A stretch of 64,000 nucleotides of DNA. Origin: Candidatus Peribacteraceae bacterium (GTDB lineage Bacteria; Patescibacteriota; Gracilibacteria; Peribacterales; Peribacteraceae). A model generated the notes under the pieces. The model did no database searches. It was not told the DNA's origin and saw only the letters and a list, made by a program, of their open reading frames with translations. Below are positions 1 through 58,909 of the stretch, piece by piece. The stretch is taken from positions 1,089,237 through 1,153,236 of the forward strand of contig JBAZVD010000001.1 in NCBI GenBank assembly GCA_041661065.1, in the 5' to 3' direction. A program made the position numbers and the translations under genes. Within the stretch, counting starts at the first letter, position 1; every line of letters starts with the position of its first letter.

Positions 1-981
1 ATGCAAGCGTTACTCGGAATTACTGGGCGTAAAGCGTCTGCAGGCGTCCTAAAAAGTCTGGTGTAAAATTTCGGAGCTCAACTCCGGAAGCGTGCCGGAA
101 ACTCTTAGGATCGAGTCACTCAGAGGCACCTGGAATGTCGTGTGTAGGGGTAAAATCCGTTGATCCACGATGGAACGCCAAAAGCGAAGGCAGGGTGCTG
201 GGGGTGTACTGACGCTCAGAGACGAAAGCGTGGGGAGCAAAGGGGATTAGATACCCCCGTAGTCCACGCCCTAAACGATGCGTGCTCGGTGTAGGAGTTT
301 TCAATTGCTCCTGTGCCCAAGCTAACGCGGTAAGCACGCCGCCTGGGAAGTACGGCCGCAAGGCTAAAACCCAAAGGAATAGACGGGGACCCACACAAGC
401 GGTGGAACATGGGGTTTAATTCGATGATAAACGAAGAACCTCACCCAGACTTGACATCCCGAGAATCTCGTCGAAAGACGGGAGTGCCGCAAGGAACTCG
501 GAGACAGGCGATGCACGGTCGTCGTCAGCTCGTGCCTTGAGGTGTACTGTTAAGTCAGCGAACGAGCGCAACCCTCATCCTATGTTGTTCTTTCATAGGA
601 GACTGCCGCCTCCAAGGCGGAGGAAGGTGGGGATGACGTCAGATCAGCGTGTCCTTTATGTCTGGGGCAACACCCATGTTACAATGGCCGATACAGAGGG
701 CAGCGAACCCGCGAGGGCAAGCAAATCCCAAAAAGTCGGTCTCAGTTCGGATTGAAGGCTGCAACTCGCCTTCATGAAGTTGGAATCGCTAGTAACCGTG
801 GGTCAGCCACACCACGGTGAATATGTTCCTGGGTCTTGTACTCACCGCCCGTCAACTCATGGGAGGCAGGGGCACCCGAAGCACCGTTACCTTCAGTGGG
901 CGGTACCACGGTGACACTGCTGACTGGGAGTAAGTCGTAACAAGGTATCCGTAGGAGAACCTGCGGATGGAATATCTCCTT
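1..981 (+). rRNA. rrs: 16S rRNA, 3' ~980 nt (the 5' part lies upstream of the window)
   Basis: Universal 16S blocks are present: GGAATTACTGGGCGTAAAG at 16-34, GGATTAGATACCC ~244, GTCGTCAGCTCGTGC ~521, TGTACTCACCGCCCGTCA ~837, AAGTCGTAACAAGGTA ~932. The 3' end is GAACCTGCGGATGGAATATCTCCTT, ending ~981. Confidence 0.95.
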
Positions 982-1188
982 ACCAGGGAGTTACCTGGAC
1001 CGTCTCGGCGTAGCCTTCGGGCGAAGCCGGACGAGTCGCTTGCTCTAGATGGTGTTCATCTTCTATCAAGCACAATTATTGACCGGGGGGACACCCCCAG
1101 TGCTTCCTTCCCTCATCCTCGAGGGCATGAAGTACTGAGGCCTCGGAAGAAAGGACTTCTCTACTACACGATGCTGTGAAAACGGGTA

Positions 1189-2768: not shown

Positions 2769-3584
2769 ATGGAACTCTCTCCCCTCCGCCCTCCCTCCCT
2801 CCGCCGCCGTGATGCGTTACGTGCAGGGCTGGCGGGAGCGGCGTGGCTGCTGATGCCGAACGCCATGGCACAAGACCCCGTGGAGGAGGATCCCCACGGC
2901 GTCAATGCGCGCTTGAAGCATCTGTTGGAAGCACCGCTCCCCCACGTGACGCACCGCGCGCACCTCATCGTCCCGGGCGCCGCGCGCGGCGTGGTGCACC
3001 TGCCGAACATCCACCAGGGCGACGCGACGACGGAAGAACTCAAACGGCAGGTGGAACAATCGCAGCGGGAGGTCGCCGAGCTCATCGAAGCCCTCTGCCG
3101 CGACGAGCGGGTGCGGCTCACGATCATCTTCAACGAGGGGGTGCTCGCCCGGGGTGAGCCGCCACCCAACCTCCCCCGCTCCTTCAGCGTGAGCCGCCAG
3201 CTCCGCCTCTCCGACCGTGCGCTCATGGGAGCGGCGGCGTACGCCGCCGAGCGGGGCTTGGTGGAGGAACGCGGCGCGGAGAAGACGGAGACGTTTACCG
3301 CCGCATGGAACAGGAAGAATGATGCGAACTGGAACAAGGTCGTCTTGGAGGACAGGGAGGATGCCTTCCTCCGCATCGCTTCAGCCGAAGATTCCGGAAG
3401 TGTGTGCTACGTGGCCTACGGAGAAGCCCATGATTGGAACAACAACGTGGCAATATGGAACAGGGAACACCCGCGGGAGAAGTTCTCCCTCGTTACCCTC
3501 TGCACCAGAGAATCCCATACGAAATACGTCCGGCTGGGCATCCTACCGCCGCCGGATCCGACCGTAGAAGACGCACCGCGATAG
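2769..3584 (+). CDS. Hypothetical secreted protein (signal peptide with RRR motif)
   Basis: The N-terminus MELSPLRPPSLRRRDALRAGLAGAAWLLMPNAMAQ resembles a Tat/Sec signal peptide. 271-aa ORF. Confidence 0.6.
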   Translation: MELSPLRPPSLRRRDALRAGLAGAAWLLMPNAMAQDPVEEDPHGVNARLKHLLEAPLPHVTHRAHLIVPGAARGVVHLPNIHQGDATTEELKRQVEQSQREVAELIEALCRDERVRLTIIFNEGVLARGEPPPNLPRSFSVSRQLRLSDRALMGAAAYAAERGLVEERGAEKTETFTAAWNRKNDANWNKVVLEDREDAFLRIASAEDSGSVCYVAYGEAHDWNNNVAIWNREHPREKFSLVTLCTRESHTKYVRLGILPPPDPTVEDAPR

Positions 3585-3601
3585 GAAGTTGTCCCCAGGG
3601 G

Positions 3602-3743
3602 TGTGGATAACGTTCACTTGTGCCTATTTGTGTATACATCGTGCTTACATTGCCTATACGAGACGGATAACCGCAACGTATGGACGCCGTATCCACAGCG
3701 TATACACAGGTTTTCCACAATTGCGGCAGAAGGCTGTGGAAAG
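3602..3743. promoter_or_regulatory. Cluster of DnaA-box-like 9-mers in a lower-GC intergenic region
   Basis: TGTGGATAA at 3602-3610 (perfect reverse complement of TTATCCACA). GTATCCACA at 3689-3697 (1 mismatch). TTTTCCACA at 3711-3719 (1 mismatch). TGTGGAAAG at 3735-3743 (2 mismatches). Confidence 0.45.
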
Positions 3744-3839
3744 CCCAAATGCTTGAATAACATTAGAGAACATATGGCAAGTCGGAACCGCCGCATGCTT
3801 GCAGGACCGCAGCGAGGAGCGTACAAACCGGAATGCACC

Positions 3840-4445
3840 ATGCGCTTTTCCGTCACCACCCAATACACGCTCATCACCATCGCCGCCGTCATTGTGGGGG
3901 CGGTGGGCTCTTCTCTGTGGACGGAGGCGAGCCTGACTGCGGAGCGTGCCGCGCCCTTCCCCCAGGGGACGCTCGTTGCGGATGACGCGGATCCCCTCTT
4001 CCTCACGGAGGGGGAAAAATGGGCGCAGATCGGCGGCGGCTTCCGCTCCGGTTCCCACACGCACCTGCGCAGGCTGGTGACGGTGGAGCAGCTGGTGAGC
4101 GCCGCTTGGACCTTTCCCTCGGTGGCGCCGGGAACCTACAAGCTCTACACCACGTGGATCCGCGGCATGACCCACGCGACGGGCGTGTCGTACCTGTTGC
4201 GCGGCCCCTCCCGTTCCCCCGACCTCACCAACCCCATCCTCTTCACCGCGCGCGTGAACCAGTCGAGAACCCCCGAGGGGAGGCAGTGGGGCGAGGGTCG
4301 CCGCACGTGGGAAGAGCTGGGGACGTTCGTGGTGGAGCAAGCGGGCCCCCTCACCCTCACCGTGCAGGGCAAATCCTCGGAGCGCTTCGACGCGGACGCG
4401 GCCATCCTGGTGCCGGTGAGCACGCCCGCGCCTGCCGCTCCATAA
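3840..4445 (+). CDS. Membrane-anchored hypothetical protein (C-terminus weakly golvesin-C-like)
   Basis: ATG at 3840 gives MRFSVTTQYTLITIAAVIVGAVGSSLW (TM anchor). An alternative ATG lies at 3774. The C-terminal pattern GTYKLY..W....TW..LG.F.V......L.V....FDADAAILVP suggests the domain call. Confidence 0.6.
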   Translation: MRFSVTTQYTLITIAAVIVGAVGSSLWTEASLTAERAAPFPQGTLVADDADPLFLTEGEKWAQIGGGFRSGSHTHLRRLVTVEQLVSAAWTFPSVAPGTYKLYTTWIRGMTHATGVSYLLRGPSRSPDLTNPILFTARVNQSRTPEGRQWGEGRRTWEELGTFVVEQAGPLTLTVQGKSSERFDADAAILVPVSTPAPAAP

Positions 4446-5456: not shown

Positions 5457-5714
5457 GCCTCCCCCGTGCGGAGTATCGTGGACACACCTTATGAGCGAAT
5501 CCCAGCGCTTCTTGCCGTTTGCGGAAACCCCTCCTGCGCCCGAGGGGGAACGGCAAAATGAGACGAACGGGAACCACGATGATGGGGAAGCGATGGCGAG
5601 AATCATCAAGAGCCACCAAGCGGCGGAAGCCCTTTTCCGCAGGGTTCCAGCGGCTCAATGGACACAATGGGCCTTATCCCAAAACAAGCGCAGCCAGAGG
5701 GCGAAAAGATGATA

Positions 5715-6544: not shown

Positions 6545-7945
6545 TCACCCCACGCCCCCCTCCATCTCCAGTTCTATCAATCTGTTCATCTCCACCGCAT
6601 ATTCCAGGGGAAGGTTCCTGATGATGGGCTCGATGAACCCGTTGACGATCATGGCGCGCGCCTGGTCCTCGGGGATGCCGCGGGAGGTGAAGTAGAAGAG
6701 GTCCTCCTCGGAGAGCTTCCCCACGCGCGCCTCATGCGCGACGGTCACGTCGTTGTTGCGGATACGGATGTCCGGGATGGTGTCCGTGCGGCTCTCGTCA
6801 TCGAGCAGGAGCGCATCGCATTCCACGTTGGAGGTGATGTCGTGCGCGCGGGGCCCCACCTGGAGCAGTCCGCGGTACACGCACACGCCCCCGCCGCGGC
6901 TGATGGACTTGGAGGTGACCTTGCTGGAGGTGTGCGGCGCGAGGTGGATGACCTTTGCGCCGGTATCCTGCCACTGGCCCGTGTTGGCGAACGCCAGGGC
7001 AAGGTGGTCGCTGCGCGCGCCCTCCCCCGTGAGCATGCTGCAGGGGTAGAGCATGGTGACGCCGCTCCCCATGTTCCCGCCCACCCACTCCATCGTCGCG
7101 TCCTTTTCCACGATCGCGCGCTTGGTATTGAGGTTATACGTGTCGCGGCTCCAGTTCTCCACGCTGGAATAGCGGACCTTTGCGCCGGGTTTGACGAAGA
7201 TCTCCACCAGCCCCGCGTGCAGCCCGATGGAGCCGTACTTGGGCGCGGAGCAGCCCTCAATGTAGTGCACCTCGCTCCCCTCCTCCGCGATGATGAGCGT
7301 GTGCTCGAACTGCCCCATGTTCATGGCGTTCATGCGGAAGTACGCCTGAAGGGGATCCGTGACCGTGACGCCCTTGGGGACGTAGAGGAAGGTGCCGCCA
7401 GACCATACGGCGCCGTGGAGCGCCGCAAATTTGTGATCCGCCATCGGCACGCACTTCATGAAGTACTGTTTGACGAGCTCGGGGTGCAGCCGCAGCGCAT
7501 CGTCCATGTTGAGGAAGATGACGCCCAGCTTCCCCCACTCCTCGCGCAAGTTGTGATAGATGACCTCGCTCTCGTACTGCGCACCCACCCCGGCGAGGAC
7601 CTTGCGCTCCGCTTCGGGAATGCCCAGCCGATCGTAGACGCGGCGGATCTCCTCCGGCACTTCCCCCCAATCGTCCGTATTCTCCGCCCCGGGGTGCGCG
7701 TAGTAGATGATCTTGTCGAAATCGAGCCCGGAAAGGTCCGCCCCCCACGTGGGCATGGGCTTTTCGTGGAAAACCTTGAGGGACGCCAACCGATGCTCCA
7801 GCATCCACTGCGGCTCATTCTTGTCCCCGCTGATCTTGCGCACCACCGCCTCGCTCAATCCCTTCGTGAGCCCCTCCGCGTAGGGGGCGGGGTTGGCCGT
7901 ATCAAAGACGGAACGGTCCAGGCCGGAGAAGATGGGCTTGGGCAT
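6545..7945 (-). CDS. sufB: Fe-S cluster assembly protein SufB
   Basis: MPKPIFSG...; conserved SufB blocks FEHTLIIAEEGSEVHYIEGCSAPKY, HLAPHTSSKVTSKSIS and LSEEDLFYFTSRGIPEDQARAMIVNGF. ATG at 7945; the ORF part upstream of it is repeat DNA. Confidence 0.95.
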   Translation of the reverse strand: MPKPIFSGLDRSVFDTANPAPYAEGLTKGLSEAVVRKISGDKNEPQWMLEHRLASLKVFHEKPMPTWGADLSGLDFDKIIYYAHPGAENTDDWGEVPEEIRRVYDRLGIPEAERKVLAGVGAQYESEVIYHNLREEWGKLGVIFLNMDDALRLHPELVKQYFMKCVPMADHKFAALHGAVWSGGTFLYVPKGVTVTDPLQAYFRMNAMNMGQFEHTLIIAEEGSEVHYIEGCSAPKYGSIGLHAGLVEIFVKPGAKVRYSSVENWSRDTYNLNTKRAIVEKDATMEWVGGNMGSGVTMLYPCSMLTGEGARSDHLALAFANTGQWQDTGAKVIHLAPHTSSKVTSKSISRGGGVCVYRGLLQVGPRAHDITSNVECDALLLDDESRTDTIPDIRIRNNDVTVAHEARVGKLSEEDLFYFTSRGIPEDQARAMIVNGFIEPIIRNLPLEYAVEMNRLIELEMEGGVG

Positions 7946-13395: not shown

Positions 13396-13470
13396 GCGTA
13401 TTACGTATTACGTATCCCGTATGACGTATACAGGAACAATACGCGATACGTAATACGTTCTACGCAATAC
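13396..13470. repeat. Heptamer hairpin (CGTATNN / NNATACG family)
   Basis: Left arm CGTATTA CGTATTA CGTATCC CGTATGA CGTATAC, loop AGGAACA, right arm ATACGCGATACGTAATACGTTCTACGCAATAC. Lies in the sufC/ferredoxin divergent region. Confidence 0.9.
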
Positions 13471-14683: not shown

Positions 14684-14833
14684 CGGTGAGCTCTCAGCTG
14701 TCAGCCTTCAGCTGCCGGCTTCCGGCAGAGTGACCATTCGGCAGCGATGAGTCTTCAGCGGTCAGCGGACAGCCTTCGTTCAAGCTGCGCCGGAAAGACC
14801 ACTGACCGATGAGAGCTGGAAGCTGAAAGCTCC
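14684..14833. repeat. Heptamer-repeat element (CAGCNNT / GCTGAAAG family)
   Basis: TCAGCTG TCAGCCT TCAGCTG CCGGCTT CCGGCAG ... CTTCAGCGGTCAGCGGACAGCC ... GCTGGAAGCTGAAAGCTCC. Abuts the holB stop. Confidence 0.85.
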
Positions 14834-15826
14834 TCACGTACTACTCACGGCAAACACGAACTTCTGAAGAACCAACGGCCGGGAAACGTTCGTCTGCAAA
14901 TCCCCCACAAGCGCGGTGAGCGCCTCCGCGCACCGGGGATCCATCCGCTCCCGCTCTTCTCTCAACGCGAGCGAGAGGTGGAGGAGCGCGCGCGAGGCCT
15001 CCTCGCCGCGGTCGCTGAGCGGCTCCAGCAGCTTGAGGCGCTCCGCCAAACTCCCCGCGCCCCAAAAGCCCTGCGCCCATGCGGCGCGCTGCCGCTCCTT
15101 GCGCAGGAGGTCGGGATCCGCCTTGAGCCGCATCACCATCCCCGGCGCCCCCTGCGCCACCCTCAGCAGGAATTGTGCGTCATCCGGCGGCATGCCGCCC
15201 GCGAGCGGCTTCATCTCCTGCGGCGAGAGGGAGGCAAAGCGCAGCACGCGCGAGCGGGAGACGAGCGTGGGAAGGAGGTGGGAGGTGGAGACGCCGGTGA
15301 GGAGGAACACCACACCCTCCGGCGGTTCCTCAAGGATCTTGAGCAGCGCGTTCACGGCTTCTTCCTGCAGGCGCTCCGCGGAGCGAATGAGGCAGCAGCG
15401 GAAGGCGCCCGTGCCCACCTCGCGCAGGCGGTCCTGCAACGCGCGGATGTCGTCAATGCCGATGGTGTCGGTCTTGGCCGTGGGCTGCTTGCTGCGGTGC
15501 GCTTGCGGCACGTTGGAACTCTTGGCAATGACGTCGAAATCCTCGCACACCTCCTCAATCCACAATTGGTCTATCACCAACAGGTCGCGGTGGAGCAGCT
15601 TGTCGATCTCCTGCTCCGCCCTCTCCCGCCCCTCCTCGGGCACGCCCTCCGTGAGCAGCTTCTTGGCGAACCACTTGGCCACGGTGAACTTGCCCAAGTG
15701 CTTCCTCCCCGTGAACAGATAAGCATGCGCCACATTCCCCGTCTCCAGGTCCGAGAGGAGGGATTGGATCTGGTCCTTGTGACCGATGATGGAGGAGGGT
15801 GAAGACAGGGAGATAGTATATGTCAA
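14834..15826 (-). CDS. holB: DNA polymerase III subunit delta' (HolB)
   Basis: AHAYLFTGRKHLGKFTVAKWFAKKLL and RCCLIRSAERLQEEAVNALLKILEEPPEGVVFLLT (clamp-loader boxes). The start codon is TTG at 15826. Confidence 0.85.
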   Translation of the reverse strand: MTYTISLSSPSSIIGHKDQIQSLLSDLETGNVAHAYLFTGRKHLGKFTVAKWFAKKLLTEGVPEEGRERAEQEIDKLLHRDLLVIDQLWIEEVCEDFDVIAKSSNVPQAHRSKQPTAKTDTIGIDDIRALQDRLREVGTGAFRCCLIRSAERLQEEAVNALLKILEEPPEGVVFLLTGVSTSHLLPTLVSRSRVLRFASLSPQEMKPLAGGMPPDDAQFLLRVAQGAPGMVMRLKADPDLLRKERQRAAWAQGFWGAGSLAERLKLLEPLSDRGEEASRALLHLSLALREERERMDPRCAEALTALVGDLQTNVSRPLVLQKFVFAVSST

Positions 15827-15843
15827 AAAGGATAGTCCGCGAG

Positions 15844-15876
15844 AAGGACTTAGGAATTAGGACAGAGGACTTAGGG
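15844..15876. repeat. Heptamer arm (AGGANNT family), left arm flanking the four-helix-bundle gene
   Basis: AAGGACT TAGGAAT TAGGACA GAGGACT TAGGG. Overlaps the stop codon at 15871-15873. Confidence 0.9.
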
Positions 15877-16242
15877 AGTGCTCATTTTGGCCATCTTCGT
15901 AATGAGCGCATTCAACATACGATGCACCTCCTGACCCTGTTTCAAAAGGTTGTCTCGCTGTTCCAGATCAATGTACTTCACTCCATAACAATAGTAGAGG
16001 AATGAAATAATCTCCACGAGTTCTCCACGGGCTTGGACGTACTTATGCATCTTATCGGGATAGGTATACCTCCCGAATCCTTCTGCGATATTCGCTGCAA
16101 CTGAAAGGCTCGCTCGCCGCATTTGCGATGTTAATTCATAGAGTTCAGTCTTAGGAAAGGACTTCGTCATCTCATGGATGCTTAGTGCGAGTTCCATCGC
16201 TTTCTTCCATGGGCCGAATTCCGTGAAGTCCTGCATTGTCAT
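15871..16242 (-). CDS. Four-helix-bundle protein (23S rRNA intervening-sequence protein / Avd family)
   Basis: FGPWKKAMELALSIHEMTKSFPKTELYELTSQMRRASLSVAANIAEGFGRYTYPDKMHKYVQARGELVEIISFL is the hallmark pattern of the TIGR02436/PF05635 family. Confidence 0.85.
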   Translation of the reverse strand: MTMQDFTEFGPWKKAMELALSIHEMTKSFPKTELYELTSQMRRASLSVAANIAEGFGRYTYPDKMHKYVQARGELVEIISFLYYCYGVKYIDLEQRDNLLKQGQEVHRMLNALITKMAKMSTP

Positions 16243-16245
16243 ATA

Positions 16246-16277
16246 CCCTAAGTCCTAAGTCCCCTGTCCTAAGTCCT
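16246..16277. repeat. Heptamer arm, right arm flanking the four-helix-bundle gene
   Basis: CCCTAAGTCCTAAGTCCCCTGTCCTAAGTCCT is an imperfect inverted copy of 15844-15876. It starts 4 nt upstream of the ATG. Confidence 0.9.
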
Positions 16278-16281
16278 CGCT

Positions 16282-16464
16282 TTATTTTCTCTTCCTCCTC
16301 TTTTCCCCGCTCACCTTGAACGGTATGCTCTTCGTCCGCACCACCTGCGTGAGGAACAGACGGACGGCGGAGCTGAGGTCGAACCCCCACTGCTCGATGA
16401 CCCGCTGGGATTGGCGCTTGAGCTTTTCATCGATGCGGATGGTGAGGACGGCGGTTGCAGGCAT
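16282..16464 (-). CDS. RelB/DinJ-family antitoxin-like protein (no cognate toxin seen)
   Basis: MPATAVLTIRIDEKLKRQSQRVIEQWGFDLSSAVRLFLTQVVRTKSIPF is a ribbon-helix-helix DinJ pattern. ATG at 16464 (alternative at 16494). Confidence 0.7.
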   Translation of the reverse strand: MPATAVLTIRIDEKLKRQSQRVIEQWGFDLSSAVRLFLTQVVRTKSIPFKVSGEKRRKRK

Positions 16465-16536
16465 GGTGTAGGGAAGGATGATACGTACATACATTGTCTA
16501 TACGTATACACGTTGTCAATACATGATGGACGCCGT

Positions 16537-16941: not shown

Positions 16942-19725
<2,784 letters not shown>

Positions 19726-19780: not shown

Positions 19781-19893
19781 GAAGATGCCGAGGTTGTCGA
19801 GGTTGCCGAGGATTCCGAAGAGTGCCAGGAAGATGCTCTGTGTTTCCAGATACAGCAGCTCGTCGGAATCCTCGGACTCTTCGGAATCCTCTT
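19781..19893. repeat. Nonamer hairpin (CGAGGNTNN / GGAATCCTCGG family)
   Basis: Left arm GCCGAGGTT GTCGAGGTT GCCGAGGAT TCCGAAGAG; right arm GTCGGAATCCTCGGACTCTTCGGAATCCTC. Confidence 0.9.
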
Positions 19894-20005: not shown

Positions 20006-20656
20006 CGGCACGACGTTCTTCTCCCCGTACTTCAAGGACTTCAGGAATACCGGCAACACTTCCTTCACGTCCTTCATCTCCGCGCGCACCGCACCCCGGG
20101 AAGAGAGGAACCGCTCATGGTCGGAGAGGAGCTCACCCGTCCACGGTGCGCCCGAGGGGTACGCGTCTCCCAGCTTCCCCAGGTCCATCCACGCCGCTTC
20201 CGGGAATGCTTTGGCGAAGGAACCGAACCCACGGACGAAGAGCTCGATTTTCTTGGTGGAATGGAGCCATAAAAAATTTGTGTGTTTTTTCCCCTCTCCC
20301 CCTCGCTCCCCCTCCCCCGATGGGGGAGGGGGAAGGGGGGTGGGGGCGGAAACACGCACAGCACACAACTCGCTCAAATGGATGCCGGCCACCGGCACAT
20401 TGAGGGAGAACGCCAGCGCGTTGGCGAACGCCGCCGCCACCCGCAGGCTGGTGAACCCGCCGGGTCCCGTGACGCACGCGACCCGTCCGATCCCCTCCTT
20501 GGACCACCGGGCTTCCGCGAGGAGCGCCTCCAGCAGAGGGAGGAGGTCGGCATCCGAGATGCGGCGGTCCACCTCCTTTAATGAGACAACCGCGTCATCC
20601 GTGACGCAGGCGACGAGCCCCGGGTTGCCGGCGAGGTCGAGGAAGAGGGTGTTCAT
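19985..20656 (-). CDS. tsaB: tRNA threonylcarbamoyladenosine biosynthesis protein TsaB
   Basis: MNTLFLDLAGNPGLVAC...IGRVACVTGPGGFTSLRVAAAFANALAFSLNVPVAGI (TsaB/YeaZ N-terminal pattern). Confidence 0.85.
   Translation of the reverse strand: MNTLFLDLAGNPGLVACVTDDAVVSLKEVDRRISDADLLPLLEALLAEARWSKEGIGRVACVTGPGGFTSLRVAAAFANALAFSLNVPVAGIHLSELCAVRVSAPTPLPPPPSGEGERGGEGKKHTNFLWLHSTKKIELFVRGFGSFAKAFPEAAWMDLGKLGDAYPSGAPWTGELLSDHERFLSSRGAVRAEMKDVKEVLPVFLKSLKYGEKNVVPWYGRKW
20277..20369. repeat. G/C-tract hairpin element (CCCCTCCCC family) in frame inside tsaB
   Basis: TTTGTGTG..CCCCTCTCCCCCTCGCTCCCCCTCCCCCGATGGGGGAGGGGGAAGGGGGGTGGGGG..CACAGCACACAA. Translated on the minus strand as ..PTPLPPPPSGEGERGGEGKK.. 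Confidence 0.85.
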
Positions 20657-20704: not shown

Positions 20705-20807
20705 GAGAATGCAAAATTGTAAATTGAAAATGGATAATGAGAGAGGAGCATCGGCTTCCAGAACCACTCCCATAATTTTCAATTTTCCATTTTCCATTTA
20801 TCATTCC
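20705..20807. repeat. Heptamer hairpin (AATGNNA family)
   Basis: Left arm GAGAATGCAAAATTGTAAATTGAAAATGGATAATGAGAG; right arm CTCCCATAATTTTCAATTTTCCATTTTCCATTTATCATTCC. Confidence 0.9.
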
Positions 20808-20810
20808 TCC

Positions 20811-21773
20811 GTGCCTCCGACTCTCTCCCTCATCATCCCCACCCACAAGCGCGCGGATATCCTCCGCGAGTGCCTCAAGAGGATCGCGGCGCAGACCGTG
20901 AAGGATCAGATCGAAGTGATCGTGGTGAGCGACGGGCAGGACGACGATACAGACCGCCTCTTTGACGGGCATACGCAATACGCAATACGTCATACGCAAT
21001 ACTTCTCCATCCCTAAATCCCAGCAGGGCGTCGCGCGCAATCGCGGCGTGGAGAAAGCGACGGGGGAAATCGTCATGTTCATCGGGGATGATATATTCCT
21101 GGAGCCGGATGCGTGCGAAGTGCATCTTAAAGTGCATGAAAACATGCAAAATGAGAAATTTGAAATGCAAAATGATGGAAGCGATTCAAGAACAAGAACT
21201 GGTGACGGAATTTCAAATTTTTCATTTCCAATTTTGCATTCCGGTTCAGCCGTCCTGGGCTATACCGAGTGGGATCCATCAATGGAGATCACGCCAGTGA
21301 TGGAATGGCTCGACCGGACCGGTTGGCAATTCGGCTATGGCTTCCTCAAACCCTACGAACACCGCGCGATCCCAAAACGCATGCAGCACCGCTTCACCTA
21401 CACCAGCCACATCAGCCTGCCGCGGGAAATCGCGTTGAAGTTCCCGTTCCGCGAAGACGTGACGATGTACGGATGGGAGGACATCGAGTGGGGATGGCGA
21501 TTGGCGCAGGAGAACATTCCCCTCCTCTATGAACCGGACGCGAAGGCGTTCCACCACCACCGGATGACGCCGGAGGATTCCTTGAAGAGGATGGAGACGC
21601 TGGGGAAGTCCGCCGCGCTCTTCGAGAGCATCAATCACGATCTTCATCTGATGCCCAAAGGGATGAAACGTATGGCCTACCGCTTCTTCAGCCTCTTCCC
21701 CACAATGAAGGGAAGGCATGCGCGGGCGTTCCTGAGAGGGATCCATACAGCGGAAGCCCCCCTTTCCTCTTAA
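20811..21773 (+). CDS. Family 2 glycosyltransferase
   Basis: (V/M)PPTLSLIIPTHKRADILRECLKRIAAQT...EVIVVSDGQDDD (GT-A DxD region). The GTG at 20811 is preferred; the upstream in-frame ATG at 20709 lies inside a hairpin element. Confidence 0.8.
   Translation: MPPTLSLIIPTHKRADILRECLKRIAAQTVKDQIEVIVVSDGQDDDTDRLFDGHTQYAIRHTQYFSIPKSQQGVARNRGVEKATGEIVMFIGDDIFLEPDACEVHLKVHENMQNEKFEMQNDGSDSRTRTGDGISNFSFPILHSGSAVLGYTEWDPSMEITPVMEWLDRTGWQFGYGFLKPYEHRAIPKRMQHRFTYTSHISLPREIALKFPFREDVTMYGWEDIEWGWRLAQENIPLLYEPDAKAFHHHRMTPEDSLKRMETLGKSAALFESINHDLHLMPKGMKRMAYRFFSLFPTMKGRHARAFLRGIHTAEAPLSS
20965..21004. repeat. Solo heptamer arm (ATACGNN family) in frame inside the GT2 gene
   Basis: CATACGCAATACGCAATACGTCATACGCAATAC, translated as HTQYAIRHTQY. 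Confidence 0.85.
21141..21242. repeat. Heptamer hairpin (AATGNNA family) in frame inside the GT2 gene
   Basis: Left arm CATGCAA AATGAGA AATTTGA AATGCAA AATGATG, ~37-nt loop, right arm GAATTTCAAATTTTTCATTTCCAATTTTGCATTCC. Translated as ..NMQNEKFEMQNDG...ISNFSFPILHS.. Confidence 0.9.
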
Positions 21774-30310: not shown

Positions 30311-30393
30311 GAAGTATGAATTATGAATCAGGAATTATGAAGGAGATAATTGAAGCCCTTCTTGATTCTTTATTCCTGCTTCATAATTCTTAA
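30311..30393. repeat. Heptamer hairpin (NNATGAA / GAAT family)
   Basis: Left arm GTATGAA TTATGAA TCAGGAA TTATGAA GG, loop AGATAATTGAAGC, right arm CCTTCTTGATTCTTTATTCCTGCTTCATAATTCTTAA. Confidence 0.9.
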
Positions 30394-30440: not shown

Positions 30441-30899
30441 GGGGTCTGCTCCTTCGATGATCGCTTCGGCGTAGTCCGCCAACGGCGGACGAAGCCTGAG
30501 AGGAACGTCCGGGCGCCATTGGAACGCCATGCGGGTAACACCCGTCCGCGCGCCACATATCCGGTAAAGGCGCGCGAGGACCAGTGCCACAGAGACGATA
30601 CCCCGCATCCTTCCTGGCAGGGAGAGCAGCAAAACATGTTCTGAGCTGTTGCATCTCTGCCGAGAAGGGTGCGGGGGGTGAAACGCCTCCCCCAGGGAGG
30701 ATCGTGCACTGCACGTGCATGCATGATCGGCAAACTCATGGTGGCGCAAGGAGGAATTGGGTTGCGGGAACCGGCGATGGTTCCGTCGCCCCCGCTACCC
30801 CTCCGCTTGAGACGGCGAACAATCGCCGTCCTAGAGAGATGATCATCCTTCCCGCGGTTGCGGGACAGACAGAACCCGGCGTATGAAGGAGCAGAACGT
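30441..30899 (+). ncRNA. rnpB: RNase P RNA (bacterial type A-like), ~459 nt
   Basis: GAGAGGAACGTCCGGGCGCC (cf. GAGGAAAGUCCGGGC), AGTGCCACAGAGACGATACCCCGC (cf. GUGCAACAGAAACAUACCGCC) and GGGACAGACAGAACCCGGCGTA (cf. ACAGAACCCGGCUUA). P1 pairing between GTCTGCTCCTT (30444-54) and AAGGAGCAGAAC (30886-97). Confidence 0.88.
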
Positions 30900-47854: not shown

Positions 47855-49477
47855 ATGACGAAGCGCGCCCTCCTTTCCGTGTCGGACAAAGCAGGTCTCG
47901 AAGACCTGGGAAAGGGCTTACAGAAGCTTAAATTCCACATCATTTCCACGGGAGGAACCGCGCGTTTTTTGCGGGAGAAAGGGGTGGAGGTGACGGACGT
48001 TTCCGACGTGACCAAGTTCCCCGAGTGCTTCTCCGGCAGGGTGAAGACCCTGCACCCCCTCATTGCGGGCGGCATACTGTTCGAGCGCAGGAACGAGGAG
48101 CACCGCAGGCAGGCGAAAGAGTTGGGGATAGAGCCGATCGACGTGGTGGTGGTGAACCTGTATCCGTTCGCCCAAACCGTGAACGATCCGAGCAAGACGA
48201 GGGAGGAGGCTGTTGAGCAAATCGACATCGGCGGGCCCACCCTCCTGCGTGAGGCGGCGAAGAACCACAGGGACGTGACGGTCGTGTGCGACCCGGGTGA
48301 TTACGGACGCGTCGTACGGGAGCTGGAAGCGAACGGAGAAACCACCGAACAGCTCCGGCGGGAACTCGCCGCGAAGGTGTTCCTCCACACCGCCGCGTAC
48401 GACGAGAAGATCGCCGAGTACCTTTCGGAAGGGACCTACCGCGGCGTGATGCTCACGGGAGGAACGCCGCTGCGGTACGGGGAGAACCCGCACCAGTGGG
48501 GGAAATATTACACGTTGTTCGATTCCCTCTCCCCCCTACCCCCTCCCCCGGTGGGGGAAGGGGAGCACGCTCGAAGCATTCAAACAACAACAGAACAACA
48601 CACATCCCCTTCCCCCCTTGGGGGAAGGGCTAGGGTAGAGGGATGGGGCATCCTCTTACAGGGGAAACCTCTGAGTTATCTGAACATCCTGGACGCCGAC
48701 GGCGCATGGTCCGCGGTGCATGACTTTTCCGACCCCACCGCCGTCCTCGTGAAGCACGCGACCCCCTCGGGCATCGCATCCCACCCGGACATCACCGAGG
48801 CGTTCCAGCGCGCGTACGACGCCGACCGTCTTTCCGCCTTCGGCGTGATCATCGCGCTCAACAGGACGTGCACGGCCGCCATCATCCAAAAACTGATCGA
48901 CCAGAAGATCTTCACGGAGGTGATCGTGGCGCCGGAGTACGAGCCGCAAGCCCTGGAACTGCTCAAGAAGAAGCCGAACCTGCGCGTGATCAAGCAGCAC
49001 AACGGCGAGCGTATGAAAGGCCGGGTCCTCTACCGCTCCGTGATGGGCGGAATGCTGGTGCAGGAGAGCGATTCGCGCGTGGTGACGGAGAAGGACCTGA
49101 CGACGGTGACCAAGGTGAAGCCGACCGCGGAGCAAGTGCGCGACCTCCTCTTCGCGTGGCGCGCGGTGAAGAGCGCCAAATCGAACGCCATCGTGTTCGC
49201 CAAAGACCAGGTGACGGTCGGCATCGGCTCCGGTCAGACGAGCAGGGTGGATGCGACGTGGATTGCGGCCAAGAGGGCGGGAGAGAATTGTCAGGGCGCG
49301 GTGATGGCCAGCGACGCCTTCTTCCCCTTCCCCGATTCCGTGGAGGAGGCCGCCAAGCACGGCATCGCGGCCATCATCCAACCGGGTGGCTCCGTGCGCG
49401 ACGCCGAAGTGTTCGCCAAAGCGGAGGAGCTGGGAATGGTGATGGTCACCACGGGGATACGGGCATTTCGCCATTAA
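47855..49477 (+). CDS. purH: Bifunctional AICAR transformylase / IMP cyclohydrolase PurH (with ~40-aa repeat-derived insertion)
   Basis: [22 protein letters not shown]...[10 protein letters not shown]...VKTLHP...VVVNLYPF; LRYGENPHQ; [16 protein letters not shown]; [10 protein letters not shown]; the C-terminus ends in ..GIRAFRH. Confidence 0.95.
48525..48648. repeat. G/C-tract double-hairpin element (CCCCTCCCC family) in frame inside purH
   Basis: CCCTCTCCCCCCTACCC, CCTCCCCCGGTGGGGGAAGGGG, A-rich spacer, CCCCTTCCCCCCTTGGGGGAAGGG, CTAGGGTAGAGGGATGGGG. Translated as ..[41 protein letters not shown].. Confidence 0.9.
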
Positions 49478-50907: not shown

Positions 50908-50974
50908 AGAGGAAGTGAGGAAAGCCAGGAGAGTATAGAGAGGGAAAGATTATGATGGAAGGCTGAATAGGACC

Positions 50975-51076
50975 GTTTCTCGACCATGTCTCGTTACTCG
51001 TTTTTCGATAGAAGCAAAGAAGTGCCGTCCATGAACGAATCGAAAAACGAGAAAGGGTCGAGAAACGAGAAACGTC
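50975..51076. repeat. Heptamer hairpin (CGAGAAA / TTTCTCG family) overlapping the recR stop
   Basis: Left arm TTTCTCGACCATGTCTCGTTACTCGTTTTTCGAT; right arm ATCGAAAAACGAGAAAGGGTCGAGAAACGAGAAACG. Confidence 0.85.
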
Positions 51077-51674: not shown

Positions 51675-51752
51675 GAAGAATTATGAATCAAGAATCGAGA
51701 ATTAAGAATATGTTTTCTCTCGTAATTCATCATTCTTCATTCTTGATTCTCC
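51675..51752. repeat. Heptamer hairpin (NNNGAAT family) between smpB and recR
   Basis: Left arm GAAGAAT TATGAAT CAAGAAT CGAGAAT TAAGAAT; right arm CGTAATTCATCATTCTTCATTCTTGATTCTCC. Confidence 0.9.
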
Positions 51753-53563: not shown

Positions 53564-53606
53564 AGAGCAGGGGGAGCGCTGAGTGCTAGGGGTGATGGGA
53601 CGGGAA

Positions 53607-53690
53607 GAGTCCGAGGATTCCGAGGATTCCGAAGAAATACATGAAAAGTCCTCGGCATCGTCGGAATCCTCGGCATCCTCTCCACCGGAG
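53607..53690. repeat. Nonamer hairpin (CGAGGATTC / GAATCCTCG family)
   Basis: Left arm GAGTCCGAGGATTCCGAGGATTCCGAAG; right arm GTCCTCGGCATCGTCGGAATCCTCGGCATCCTC. Same family as 19781-19893. Confidence 0.9.
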
Positions 53691-54477: not shown

Positions 54478-54550
54478 CTGAATGCAAAATGAATAAATGC
54501 AAAATGAAAAAGAGACCATTTCGCATTTCCAATTTCCCATTTTGCATTCT
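54478..54550. repeat. Heptamer hairpin (AATGNNA family)
   Basis: Left arm CTGAATGCAAAATGAATAAATGCAAAATGAAAAAG; right arm CATTTCGCATTTCCAATTTCCCATTTTGCATTC. Confidence 0.9.
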
Positions 54551-56636: not shown

Positions 56637-56720
56637 CGTATTACGTATTGCGTAGTGCGTAGTACGTTGGCGCAAGAAGAACGAAGATACGCAATACGCC
56701 ATACATAATACGTAATACTC
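56637..56720. repeat. Heptamer hairpin (CGTANNN / ATACGNN family) upstream of RNase J
   Basis: Left arm CGTATTACGTATTGCGTAGTGCGTAGTACG; right arm GATACGCAATACGCCATACATAATACGTAATAC. Confidence 0.9.
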
Positions 56721-56886: not shown

Positions 56887-58830
56887 ATGAACGAAATGCA
56901 TGAAACGACGCAACCCGCGCCTCAGGCGCAGGGCGCTCTTCCTACAGGTCCCGCCGGAGGCTCCGAGCCTCGCCGAGGGGCCGCGCCCCCTCCCGGCGCT
57001 CCGCAAAAACAGGGAGGATTCACCCCTCCCGCTCAACAGAAATCCGGCCGGGGACGGCACCATCGGCGCTTCCGGGACGGAAGGACACCCCGCCCCGCCC
57101 TCCAGGGGAACGGTCAGCTCCCCAGAACCCAACCGCAACAGCCACAACGGTTCGATACTCGACAAGTCCCCCTCCGCGTGTACCCCCTCGGGGGATTCGA
57201 GCAGGTGGGACGCAACTGCTTCGTCATAGAGGTGGATGGCGACATCTACCTCATCGACCTCGGCCTGCAGTTCCCCGACGAGGACATGTTGGGCATCGAT
57301 TACCTGATCCCGGACATCTCTTCCCTCAAGGGAAGGGAGAACCGCATCAAGGGCGTGCTCTTCACCCACGGGCACCTGGACCACATCGGCGCGGTGCAGC
57401 ACCTGCTCCCCGCTCTCCACTATCCGCCGCTCTACGGCACGCGCCTCACCATGGCGTTCGTGAAGAAGCGCCTGGACGAGGAGAAGATGACATCCAAGGC
57501 GCGTATGAACGTGGTGAAGTTCCGCGAGAAGATCCGCCTGGGCAAGGTGGAAGTGGAATTCCTCCGCGTGACGCACTCCATACCGGACGCGGCGGCCATC
57601 GCCGTCCACACCCCCTACGGCACCATCATCCACACGGGCGACTTCAAGTTCGACCTTACGCCCATGAATGAGCCTCCCGCCGACTTCCCGCGCCTCGCGG
57701 AGATCGGCGACAAGGGCGTTCTCGCCATCATCGCGGACTCCACCAACGCCAACAAGCCCGGCAACTCCAAGAGCGAACGCGAGATTTCGGAAACGCTCCA
57801 CGGCCTCATCCGCGACGCCAAGGGGCGCCTGATCATCTCCACCTTCAGCTCGCTCATCAACCGCATGCAGCAGATCATCGAGCACGCGCGCAGCTACAAC
57901 CGCAAGATTTTCATCTCCGGACGGAGCATGGAGACCAACCTGGAGATCGCCCAGCAACTGGGCTACCTCCGCGTCCCGCGGGGGCTCATCCGCAAGGTGA
58001 ACCCCGCCATGGACAGGCTTCCCGATAAGGAAGTGTTGATCCTCACCACGGGAAGCCAGGGTGAAGAGATGGCGGGCCTCGCCCGCATCGGCCTGGGCAC
58101 CCACCGCCACATCAGCGTGAAGAAGGGCGACACCGTCATCCTCAGCTCCAACCCCATCATCGGCAACGAGCGGGCCGTGGCCAAGGTGGTGAACAACCTG
58201 CACATGCAGGGCGCCGTGGTAAAGACCAGCCAGGAACTTGCAATCCACACCACGGGACACGGCTATGCCAACGACCTCCTGCTCATGCACCGCCTGGTGC
58301 GTGCGCGCCACGTGATTCCCGAACACGGCGAACCGCACATGCGCGCCGCGCATGCGGACCTGGTGCGGCAGATCGGCTACCCCGAGAACCAAATCCACCA
58401 GCTCGCCAACGGCGAGATCATCGAGTTCGACGCCAAGGGTGACGCGCGCAAGAGCAAGAGCAAGCTCACGTTCCACGACGTGATCATCGACGGGCGCGGC
58501 AGCGCGGGCGAAGGCCAGCGCGTGCTGGACGACCGCAAGGTGATGAGCGAGAACGGCGTGATCATCATCCTGTTCCGCGTCTACAACGAGAGTAAGCGGC
58601 TCGTGGGCGACCCGGACATCGTCTCTCGCGGGCTGATCTACGGCTCCGAGCAGCAGGAGATCACGCGCGATCTGATCCAAGCCTCCCGCAAGGCCTACGA
58701 GGATGAACTGAACCGCGGCGAGAAGGACCGCAAGGCCCTCAAGCGCGCGGTGACGGGTGCCCTCTACCGGTACTTTGACCGGAAGCTGGACAGAGAGCCG
58801 ATGGTTATTCCTCTCATGGTTGAGGTCTGA
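56887..58830 (+). CDS. rnj: Ribonuclease J with P/G/Q-rich N-terminal extension
   Basis: Metallo-beta-lactamase/beta-CASP blocks: VYPLGGFEQVGRNCFVIEVDGDIYLIDLG, FTHGHLDHIGA, DSTNA and HTTGHG. Confidence 0.93.
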   Translation: MNEMHETTQPAPQAQGALPTGPAGGSEPRRGAAPPPGAPQKQGGFTPPAQQKSGRGRHHRRFRDGRTPRPALQGNGQLPRTQPQQPQRFDTRQVPLRVYPLGGFEQVGRNCFVIEVDGDIYLIDLGLQFPDEDMLGIDYLIPDISSLKGRENRIKGVLFTHGHLDHIGAVQHLLPALHYPPLYGTRLTMAFVKKRLDEEKMTSKARMNVVKFREKIRLGKVEVEFLRVTHSIPDAAAIAVHTPYGTIIHTGDFKFDLTPMNEPPADFPRLAEIGDKGVLAIIADSTNANKPGNSKSEREISETLHGLIRDAKGRLIISTFSSLINRMQQIIEHARSYNRKIFISGRSMETNLEIAQQLGYLRVPRGLIRKVNPAMDRLPDKEVLILTTGSQGEEMAGLARIGLGTHRHISVKKGDTVILSSNPIIGNERAVAKVVNNLHMQGAVVKTSQELAIHTTGHGYANDLLLMHRLVRARHVIPEHGEPHMRAAHADLVRQIGYPENQIHQLANGEIIEFDAKGDARKSKSKLTFHDVIIDGRGSAGEGQRVLDDRKVMSENGVIIILFRVYNESKRLVGDPDIVSRGLIYGSEQQEITRDLIQASRKAYEDELNRGEKDRKALKRAVTGALYRYFDRKLDREPMVIPLMVEV

Positions 58831-58836
58831 TTCACC

Positions 58837-58903
58837 ATACGTAATACGAAATACGTGATACGGTATACGTGTCCGTATTTTGTATTACGTATTACGTATT
58901 TCG
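58837..58903. repeat. Heptamer hairpin (ATACGNN / CGTATNN family) downstream of RNase J
   Basis: Left arm CATACGTAATACGAAATACGTGATACGGTATACG; right arm CGTATTTTGTATTACGTATTACGTATTTCG. Confidence 0.9.
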
Positions 58904-58909
58904 CATCAC

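Follow-up and report, generated by a model that had tools for sequence, protein, structure and literature searches.

A four-helix-bundle gene enclosed by inverted heptamer-repeat arms in a Peribacteraceae operon resembles the intervening sequences of bacterial rRNA

The closest described relatives of the element reported here are the intervening sequences (IVS) of bacterial rRNA genes. Ralph and McClelland reportedly described in 1993 an IVS of the Leptospira 23S rRNA that carries an open reading frame (ORF) of the S23p/IVP type. In Coxiella burnetii, the IVS of the 23S rRNA contains tandem GACAGAT heptamers, variable in number and located before the ATG of the S23p gene, and RNase III cleaves the stem of this IVS (PMC4990558). 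Genes of the same family, PF05635, have also been found to interrupt operons and CRISPR-cas loci (PMC3936711) as well as rRNA genes of the candidate phyla radiation (CPR) (bioRxiv 10.1101/2024.02.27.582315), flanking arms being described in neither of these reports. Among the open-access papers searched, heptamer repeats are tied to the PF05635/S23p family in a single description, the one of Coxiella. Here we analysed a stretch of 64,000 nucleotides, hereafter called the window, from the genome of a Candidatus Peribacteraceae bacterium, a member of the Peregrinibacteria within the CPR (contig JBAZVD010000001.1, positions 1,089,237 to 1,153,236). Between the genes relB and holB, it contains a PF05635 gene flanked on both sides by inverted arrays of heptamers. 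In our judgement this segment is probably an exchangeable cassette of the IVS type residing in an operon and made of the PF05635 gene together with its own inverted heptamer arms; the coordinates of all features are collected in Table 1.

The likeness between the window cassette and the rRNA IVS covers the protein family, an ORF looped out by terminal inverted repeats, the sense orientation inside a host transcription unit, tandem heptamers (GACAGAT in the case of Coxiella) that immediately precede the ATG within the 5′ arm, and signs of horizontal exchange. The difference lies first in the location: the cassette stands between protein-coding genes, in the relB|holB spacer and outside any rRNA helix, and the window holds no 23S rRNA gene, only the 3′ part of a 16S rRNA gene, inside which it starts. 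In addition, excision by RNase III is known for the rRNA IVS and is inferred here, and the ORF of the Coxiella IVS is decaying and apparently untranslated, whereas the window ORF is intact and under purifying selection. By analogy, the window element is built, and would work, like an ORF-bearing rRNA IVS minus the rRNA location.

The two arms are 32 nt long each, inverted and 81% complementary, with a 24-nt core reaching 92%. Both are period-7 arrays, in which the units AGGACTT, AGGACAG and AGGAATT were recognized. Only 3 nt separate the inner end of the 5′ arm from the ATG, and the TAA stop codon lies within the 3′ arm. This is the geometry claimed by a preliminary description of this DNA, drawn from the letters alone, which had reported AGGACTT-type arms enclosing the gene. 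The sequence AGGACTTAGG, with at most one mismatch, was found 7 times in the 64 kb, including 6 occurrences in the two arms, and none of 100 shuffles reached 7. When an ungapped inverted-repeat score was computed (+1 per match, −2 per mismatch), the window cassette obtained 18, while only 1.1% of 284 control ORFs reach 16. In the predicted fold of the sense RNA, the minimum-energy and the centroid structures alike have the arms paired with the entire ORF enclosed between them (z = −4.2), and the stem-loop topology put forward in the same description is thereby borne out at the level of prediction. A promoter and terminator scan revealed no promoter-like site at the cassette. It did pick up a weak terminator-like hairpin, followed by ATCCTTTTTG, which lies just ahead of holB and coincides in part with the outer end of the 3′ arm. 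Nothing relevant was found in Rfam at the cassette, a match to Yfr20 (E = 0.39) being at the level of chance.

The gene encodes a protein of 123 amino acids; an alternative start at 16236 is possible and gives the 121-amino-acid form of the NCBI annotation (P0001). The 123-residue protein scored 112.5 bits with the PF05635 profile (cut-off 33.8) and 111.7 bits with TIGR02436 (cut-off 24), so that the family assignment made beforehand is confirmed. The R..S...N..E core motif, cited for the family in PMC3936711, is present, its residues R43, S47, N51 and E54 being invariant in an alignment of 27 sequences. XCC0516 (PDB 2GSC) was retrieved as a sequence match by phmmer (E = 1.9e-13). An AlphaFold2 model of the monomer displays four helices with a predicted local distance difference test (pLDDT) score of 96.3 and superposes on 2GSC with a TM-score of 0.85–0.90 and a root-mean-square deviation of 0.8 Å, on BT_0352 (2RLD) with a TM-score of 0.76–0.86, and on Avd (4DWL, and 8UB7 for the ribonucleoprotein of a diversity-generating retroelement, DGR) with a TM-score of about 0.79 at 13% sequence identity. 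The window protein is thus predicted to have the XCC0516/Avd fold. In the profile search, PF05635 was accompanied only by a weak bAvd match, and no HUH/Y1 or DDE transposase domain was found. Where it could be computed, dN/dS between cassette proteins was below 0.2, a figure to be read as an upper bound of about 0.2 only, dS being saturated in most pairs; these values indicate that the cassette protein is under purifying selection.

The GC content is 46% in the cassette gene and 62% in its flanks. Family genes, that of the window included, lie below the GC content of their host in 64 of 65 loci, by 8 points on average, and follow it closely (r = 0.93). A low GC content as a sign of recent foreign origin was considered and rejected, as the offset is family-wide yet tracks host GC.

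At its site, the cassette is inserted in the gene string secA-relB-holB in sense orientation and fills the short spacer between relB and holB. The 5′ arm lies 4 nt from the stop codon of relB, and the 3′ arm about 18 nt from the start of holB; RelB has no toxin partner here. The relB|holB junction of L092, the closest relative available, also contains the cassette, with gene and arms. In L094, an uncalled RelE/YafQ-like ORF occupies this position (2870-3127), and L095 has neither relB, nor the cassette, nor a heptamer hairpin at the orthologous junction.

The comparison with L092 was used as an exchange test. The host genes are similar in the two genomes, with amino-acid identities of 93.2% for relB, 88.6% for secA and 85.8% for holB, synonymous divergences (dS) of 0.16, 0.49 and 0.61, and identities at third codon positions of 89.8%, 73.3% and 70.3%, respectively. 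For the cassette gene, the amino-acid identity is 57%, dS is saturated and the third-position identity is 28.7%, which is about the level of unrelated sequences. The aligned sequences are almost identical up to the end of relB and on into the 5′ arm, for its outer ~26 nt; identity then drops abruptly and is partly regained in the 3′ arm. Because synonymous sites cannot outrun neutral divergence, this pattern speaks for replacement or independent insertion of distant alleles and not for fast evolution in place. The alignment indicates that the cassette at relB|holB was replaced since the divergence from L092, with a 5′ junction located inside the arm. A similar situation was observed at the recA site, where L005 and L014 differ by a dS of 0.78 in recA and 0.98 in dnaB, and by a saturated dS in the cassette gene. 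Protein identity is also decoupled from the locus: the gene at the recA site of Ca. Peribacter riflensis is 80% identical to one at an ftsZ site. In L014, the NUDIX gene (1977-2504), which separates the cassette from an empty AGGACTT hairpin, shares only 56% of its amino acids and 37.5% of its third positions with its P. riflensis counterpart, a divergence like that of a cassette, between recA and dnaB genes that are 92% identical. Judging from these identities, the exchanged segment may extend from the arm to this empty hairpin.

The closest homologues of the window protein, 51–71% identical, belong to Peregrinibacteria and are encoded by cassettes at four different loci. Besides the relB|holB site shared with L092, homologous cassettes are found at a recA|NUDIX site in P. 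riflensis and L014, at an ftsZ|dut site in L009, L012, L013 and L221, and after topA in L220; L013 and L220 are two cassettes of one metagenome-assembled genome (MAG), both with AGGACNN arms. All nine Peregrinibacteria cassettes (9/9) are bordered by AGGACNN heptamer arms, in which the variant unit AGGACAG is often common to them. At least six other hairpin families are present in the window, yet the arms are always of the AGGACNN type, which would not be expected if the gene had dropped at random into hairpins of the host. The gene and its arms are a single unit, which is met again at other loci and, as the survey below shows, in other phyla.

To describe the family more broadly, one genome per GTDB species was scanned with a protein pattern based on the 11 closest sequences, the flanks being ignored by the scan. 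This yielded 80 loci from Acidobacteriota, Bacteroidota, Alphaproteobacteria, Gammaproteobacteria, Deltaproteobacteria, Chloroflexota, Planctomycetota, Omnitrophota, Gemmatimonadota and several CPR groups. The flanks of 77 distinct IVP loci were compared with those of the 284 control ORFs, which are neighbours of the family genes. A flanking inverted-repeat score of at least 10 was reached by 64% of family genes and 2.8% of controls, and a period-7 array was detected in at least one flank of 73–77% of family genes and 6–7% of controls. When periods 3 to 12 were compared, period 7 alone stood out, period 8 being marginally over the controls. The repeat unit varies with the lineage (TAGGTAG, GTGTCAG, TTAGCAT, GGGATCA, GCAGTAG, GGGCTTA and others), and the geometry does not: as a rule, no more than ~30 nt lie between the end of the 5′ arm and the ATG, and the start of the 3′ arm falls in the interval from 15 nt ahead of the end of the stop codon to ~27 nt past it. 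In 63/77 loci, the sense strand of the 5′ arm is rich in purines. Co-directional genes are present on both sides in 46/72 loci, and the gaps to the neighbours, of about 55 nt, are filled by the arms. No 23S motifs were found in the 80 genome-collection loci or in the other related loci compared. In Xanthomonas campestris, the orthologue of the crystallised XCC0516 (P0259, 86% identical) is located between accB and accC and has GGGAATC arrays as arms. About 186 GGGAATC arrays, including 70 convergent pairs, have been described in the X. campestris genome, the XCC0516-type gene being unmentioned (PMC4692102). A gene within a heptamer hairpin is the normal state of the very large PF05635 family, outside rRNA as well as inside. 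The preliminary description had named two places at which its link between arms and gene could fail, namely other family genes without arms and an orthologous locus without arms; both came out in its favour, with heptamer arms on other family genes and with gene and arms together in L092.

Two observations were made alongside this survey. A heptamer that contains a stop codon produces stops in all three frames when repeated, an idea noted earlier for TAACTGA repeats (PMC4679880); such three-frame stops are enriched in the upstream arms (36%, for 8% in the controls) but not general, and they were not retained as the reason for period 7. In L071, a Terriglobales MAG, a unit of ~97 nt is tandemly repeated about 6 times before an intact family gene (3340-4000); it comprises a heptamer array, a leader and codons 1 to 8 of the four-helix-bundle ORF. 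At a distance of 2 kb there is a second array (1477-1800), whose units of ~100 nt contain these heptamers too.

The survey bears on the explanation that best survives besides an IVS-type cassette, although we regard it as unlikely. It holds that the arms are operon-junction hairpins of the host, serving termination or mRNA stability, and that one of their loops received, or preserved, a naked four-helix-bundle ORF. Heptamer hairpins are indeed abundant in the window, the relB|holB junction of another genome (L097) has a hairpin and no gene, and the window and L092 have in common, along with the host flank, the outer part of the 5′ arm. However, the AGGACNN type of arm was found on each of the nine Peregrinibacteria cassettes, over four loci, in spite of the six or more other units available in host hairpins, heptamer arms go with the family as a whole and set its genes apart from neighbouring ORFs, and the polarity of the arms is fixed relative to the gene.

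Hairpins of a cassette's repeat unit that lack the gene exist in related and in unrelated genomes. In L014, also a Peribacteraceae genome, an AGGACTT hairpin devoid of ORF, with a loop of ~35 nt, lies one gene downstream of the cassette (2505-2600), and its 3′ arm is nearly identical to the 3′ arm of the L014 cassette; P. riflensis has no counterpart of this empty hairpin. ORF-less hairpins located near the cassettes of L032, L076, L015 and L039 likewise share the unit of the respective cassette. An exact-pattern scan recovered short AGGACTW hairpins in at least 120 metagenome contigs, for a chance expectation of a handful (hand estimate); among the matches listed, 5 contigs also bear family genes, two of which, one in L118 and one in L124, have AGGACTG-type arms. 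The soil metagenome contig L118 has two family genes (203-592 and 6617-7039) with different arm units, AGTACTC-type and AGGACTG-type, together with an empty AGGACTA hairpin (5644-5696), which suggests that a single genome can harbour cassettes and hairpins of more than one family.

These data allow two proposals of the preliminary description to be delimited. The proposed relation between the hairpins and the cassette is supported, mostly from outside the window, in that AGGACNN arms accompany the gene at four loci, gene-less hairpins of the same unit are found elsewhere and the layout is family-wide; for the other hairpins of the window, which use different heptamers, the relation is one of architecture only. 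The proposal that hairpins are empty sites or relics of cassettes does not extend in its simple form to the one of L097, whose CGTATT-type unit differs from AGGACTT: as a simple relic of the window cassette, the L097 hairpin was rejected.

Gene-less copies also bring to mind a miniature inverted-repeat transposable element (MITE) or another transposon-like element, the arms of which would be terminal inverted repeats for a transposase encoded elsewhere, with the gene as a passenger. Inverted termini, ORF-less copies, several insertion sites and similar hairpins inserted inside coding sequences of the window genome all go in this direction. Among known elements, Correia elements, Rickettsia palindromic elements and MITE-like palindromes are short palindromic insertions in transcribed regions, as the window hairpins are, even in coding sequences. 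Correia hairpins are RNase III substrates. Those palindromes nevertheless differ by a fixed consensus, target-site duplications and the lack of a gene, whereas the arms described here are tandem arrays of variable length with a lineage-dependent unit, unlike terminal repeats bound by a transposase. Moreover, neither the window nor the Xanthomonas junctions show a target-site duplication, the passenger would always be one protein family across phyla, and no transposase is encoded within 10 kb on either side. A transposon-like nature is therefore, in our view, quite improbable.

The position of the gene beside an orphan relB raises a further possibility, that of a RelB partner standing in for the missing RelE toxin, with the hairpin as a regulator. 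It is suggested by the RelE/YafQ-like ORF that L094 has between relB and holB, where the window and L092 have the cassette, but homologous cassettes adjoin recA, ftsZ, topA, accB and many unrelated genes, and PADLOC returned no toxin-antitoxin or defence-system match for the cassette gene or its neighbours, which makes this function very remote. Lastly, that the window protein is the Avd of a DGR is effectively refuted for this locus: despite the shared fold and weak matches to Avd models, it scores 27 bits with NF033474 (cut-off 80) and 18.8 bits with PF22296 (cut-off 40), no reverse transcriptase (RVT family) is found among the called genes within 10 kb on either side, and the only repeats around the gene are its arms, with no template/variable repeat pair, in agreement with the earlier statement that a DGR role has no support here. 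Avd shares fold and superfamily with the window protein but is a separate family.

For the cassette in the operon, the following course of events can be proposed. As the scan of the cassette gave no promoter-like site and as the arms fill the spacers, the element would have no promoter of its own and would depend on read-through transcription of the host operon. Within such a transcript, the arms would pair into a stem of ~30 bp from which the whole ORF is looped out, and RNase III would cut this stem, for which the rRNA IVS of Coxiella, Leptospira and Salmonella provide a precedent. Such cleavage would separate the cassette RNA from the host RNA and so limit the harm done to host genes. In our view, processing of the cassette as an RNA stem is probable. 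In the DNA, the repetitive arms could offer homology through which cassettes would be exchanged, moved or reduced to empty hairpins. As to the protein, nucleic-acid binding, possibly to the arms themselves, is plausible by analogy with Avd, a pentamer that contacts RNA in its ribonucleoprotein.

Several points weigh against an IVS-type cassette. About one third of family genes miss clear inverted arms, and no second AGGACTT array exists elsewhere in the 64-kb window. At the relB|holB junction of L097 (5900-6000), a CGTATT-type hairpin is found without gene. By inspection, no target-site duplication or direct repeat is visible at the window and Xanthomonas (L218) junctions, and no nuclease or recombinase motif is recognizable in the window protein. 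In Coxiella, the homologous protein is apparently not made (PMC4990558). Cleavage by RNase III and read-through transcription at the cassette are both inferred. Finally, G:U-compatible mismatches in the arms number 44 in the sense and 39 in the antisense direction and show no excess, so that selection on an RNA stem is not distinguishable in the sequence from complementarity at the DNA level. It is equally possible that arm complementarity is kept at the DNA level, through recombination or template switching between the arms.

The family-wide association of gene and heptamers may be compared with two other systems. REPIN-RAYT systems have a single-copy gene bracketed by a short repeat in two opposed copies, with further copies scattered without the gene. 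Dispersal of this kind is exemplified by the Xanthomonas GGGAATC arrays and by the empty hairpins of L014 (AGGACTT), L032, L076, L015 and L039, while the window has its one pair of AGGACTT arrays. The window protein differs by being a four-helix bundle without HUH/tyrosine transposase motifs, the repeats differ by being tandem heptamer arrays and not a fixed palindrome, and mobilization of heptamer repeats by a four-helix-bundle protein is only a proposal. The second comparison is with heptamer simple sequence repeat families, namely the cyanobacterial STRR, GGGAATC (PMC4692102) and TAACTGA of Beggiatoaceae (PMC4679880). Like the arms, these are intergenic period-7 arrays, often just upstream of start codons, often with stops in three frames and sometimes in convergent pairs. 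In those papers the repeats come without an associated gene, whereas the arrays of the window and of Xanthomonas bracket a PF05635 gene. On this basis one may tentatively imagine, though we hold it to be doubtful, that PF05635 proteins are trans-acting partners of bacterial heptamer-repeat families (STRR, GGGAATC, the Peribacteraceae hairpins and possibly TAACTGA). The gene would then sit, in the manner of a RAYT, between the inverted arrays that it serves, the gene-less hairpins in genomes, rRNA genes and coding sequences would be derivatives or substrates, and the binding of a pentamer to the arrays, whether DNA or RNA, would bring about their spread, exchange or processing.

Two old puzzles, the rRNA IVS with their S23p/IVP ORF (since 1993) and the heptamer repeat families (since 1990), may thus be one. 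The orthologue of XCC0516 splits the accB-accC operon of X. campestris, which is culturable and genetically tractable, and makes these hypotheses directly testable. In annotation, it would be right to handle each gene and its arms as a single element, and to mark them within operons as places where RNA is likely to be processed. Specialists will probably be surprised by heptamer arms as a hallmark of the family, by exchange within the arms and by the link to heptamer repeat families.

Table 1. Positions of the cassette, its host genes and other features in the 64-kb window.
Feature	Position	Strand	Remarks
Candidate IVS-type cassette (gene plus arms)	15845-16277		
5′ arm	16246..16277	minus	coding strand AGGACTT AGGACAG GGGACTT AGGACTT AGGG; purine-rich tandem heptamers
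3′ arm	15845..15876	minus	coding strand CCCTAAGTCCTCTGTCCTAATTCCTAAGTCCT; pyrimidine-rich complement of 5′ arm
PF05635/TIGR02436 four-helix-bundle gene	15871..16242	minus	ORF, 123 aa
TAA stop codon of the gene	15871-15873	minus	
Weak terminator-like hairpin	15834-15850	minus	AGTCC...GGACT, then the sequence given in the text
RelB/DinJ-type antitoxin gene (relB), upstream host gene	16282..16494	minus	PF04221, TIGR02384; context, outside cassette
holB (DNA polymerase III delta′), downstream host gene	14834..15826	minus	PF13177; context, outside cassette
16S rRNA gene, 3′ part	1-982		
(TCAGCGG)n/(TGAAAGC)n array pair	14755-14831		in spacer after holB
(TCAGCGG)n/(TGAAAGC)n array pair	17727-17796		in variable-length SecA linker
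Glycosyltransferase gene	20709..21773		
RNase P RNA match	30445-30899		
Other hairpin	13396-13465		
Other hairpin	19790-19891		
Other hairpin	20288-20352		
Other hairpin	20707-20798		
Other hairpin	21144-21239		in frame inside the glycosyltransferase gene
Other hairpin	30315-30392		between tRNA-Thr and RNase P RNA
Other hairpin	48529-48640		
Other hairpin	50974-51067		
Other hairpin	51685-51749		
Other hairpin	53604-53680		
Other hairpin	54481-54542		
Other hairpin	56638-56718		
Other hairpin	58828-58908		

The window contains at least 12 other hairpins with a short loop and arms made of tandem 7-mers or 9-mers, none of them with the AGGACTT unit. They fall into families with 2–4 copies each per 64 kb, based on CGTATTA/ATACGTA, AAATTGA/GAAATGC, GAATTAT/AAGAATC, the 9-mer TCCGAGGAT and a G-rich/C-rich unit. 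The heptamer hairpin within the glycosyltransferase gene adds ~30 residues to the protein (MQNEKFEMQNDGSDSRTRTGDGISNFSFPILH); this insert is absent from the L097 and L095 orthologues and resembles Rickettsia palindromic elements. The heptamer hairpin that follows it in Table 1 neighbours a match to RNase P RNA of 455 nt, for a model of 367 positions, which may carry an insertion. A different type of repeat is represented by a pair of mutually non-complementary arrays, (TCAGCGG)n and (TGAAAGC)n, which occurs twice in the window, in opposite orientation.

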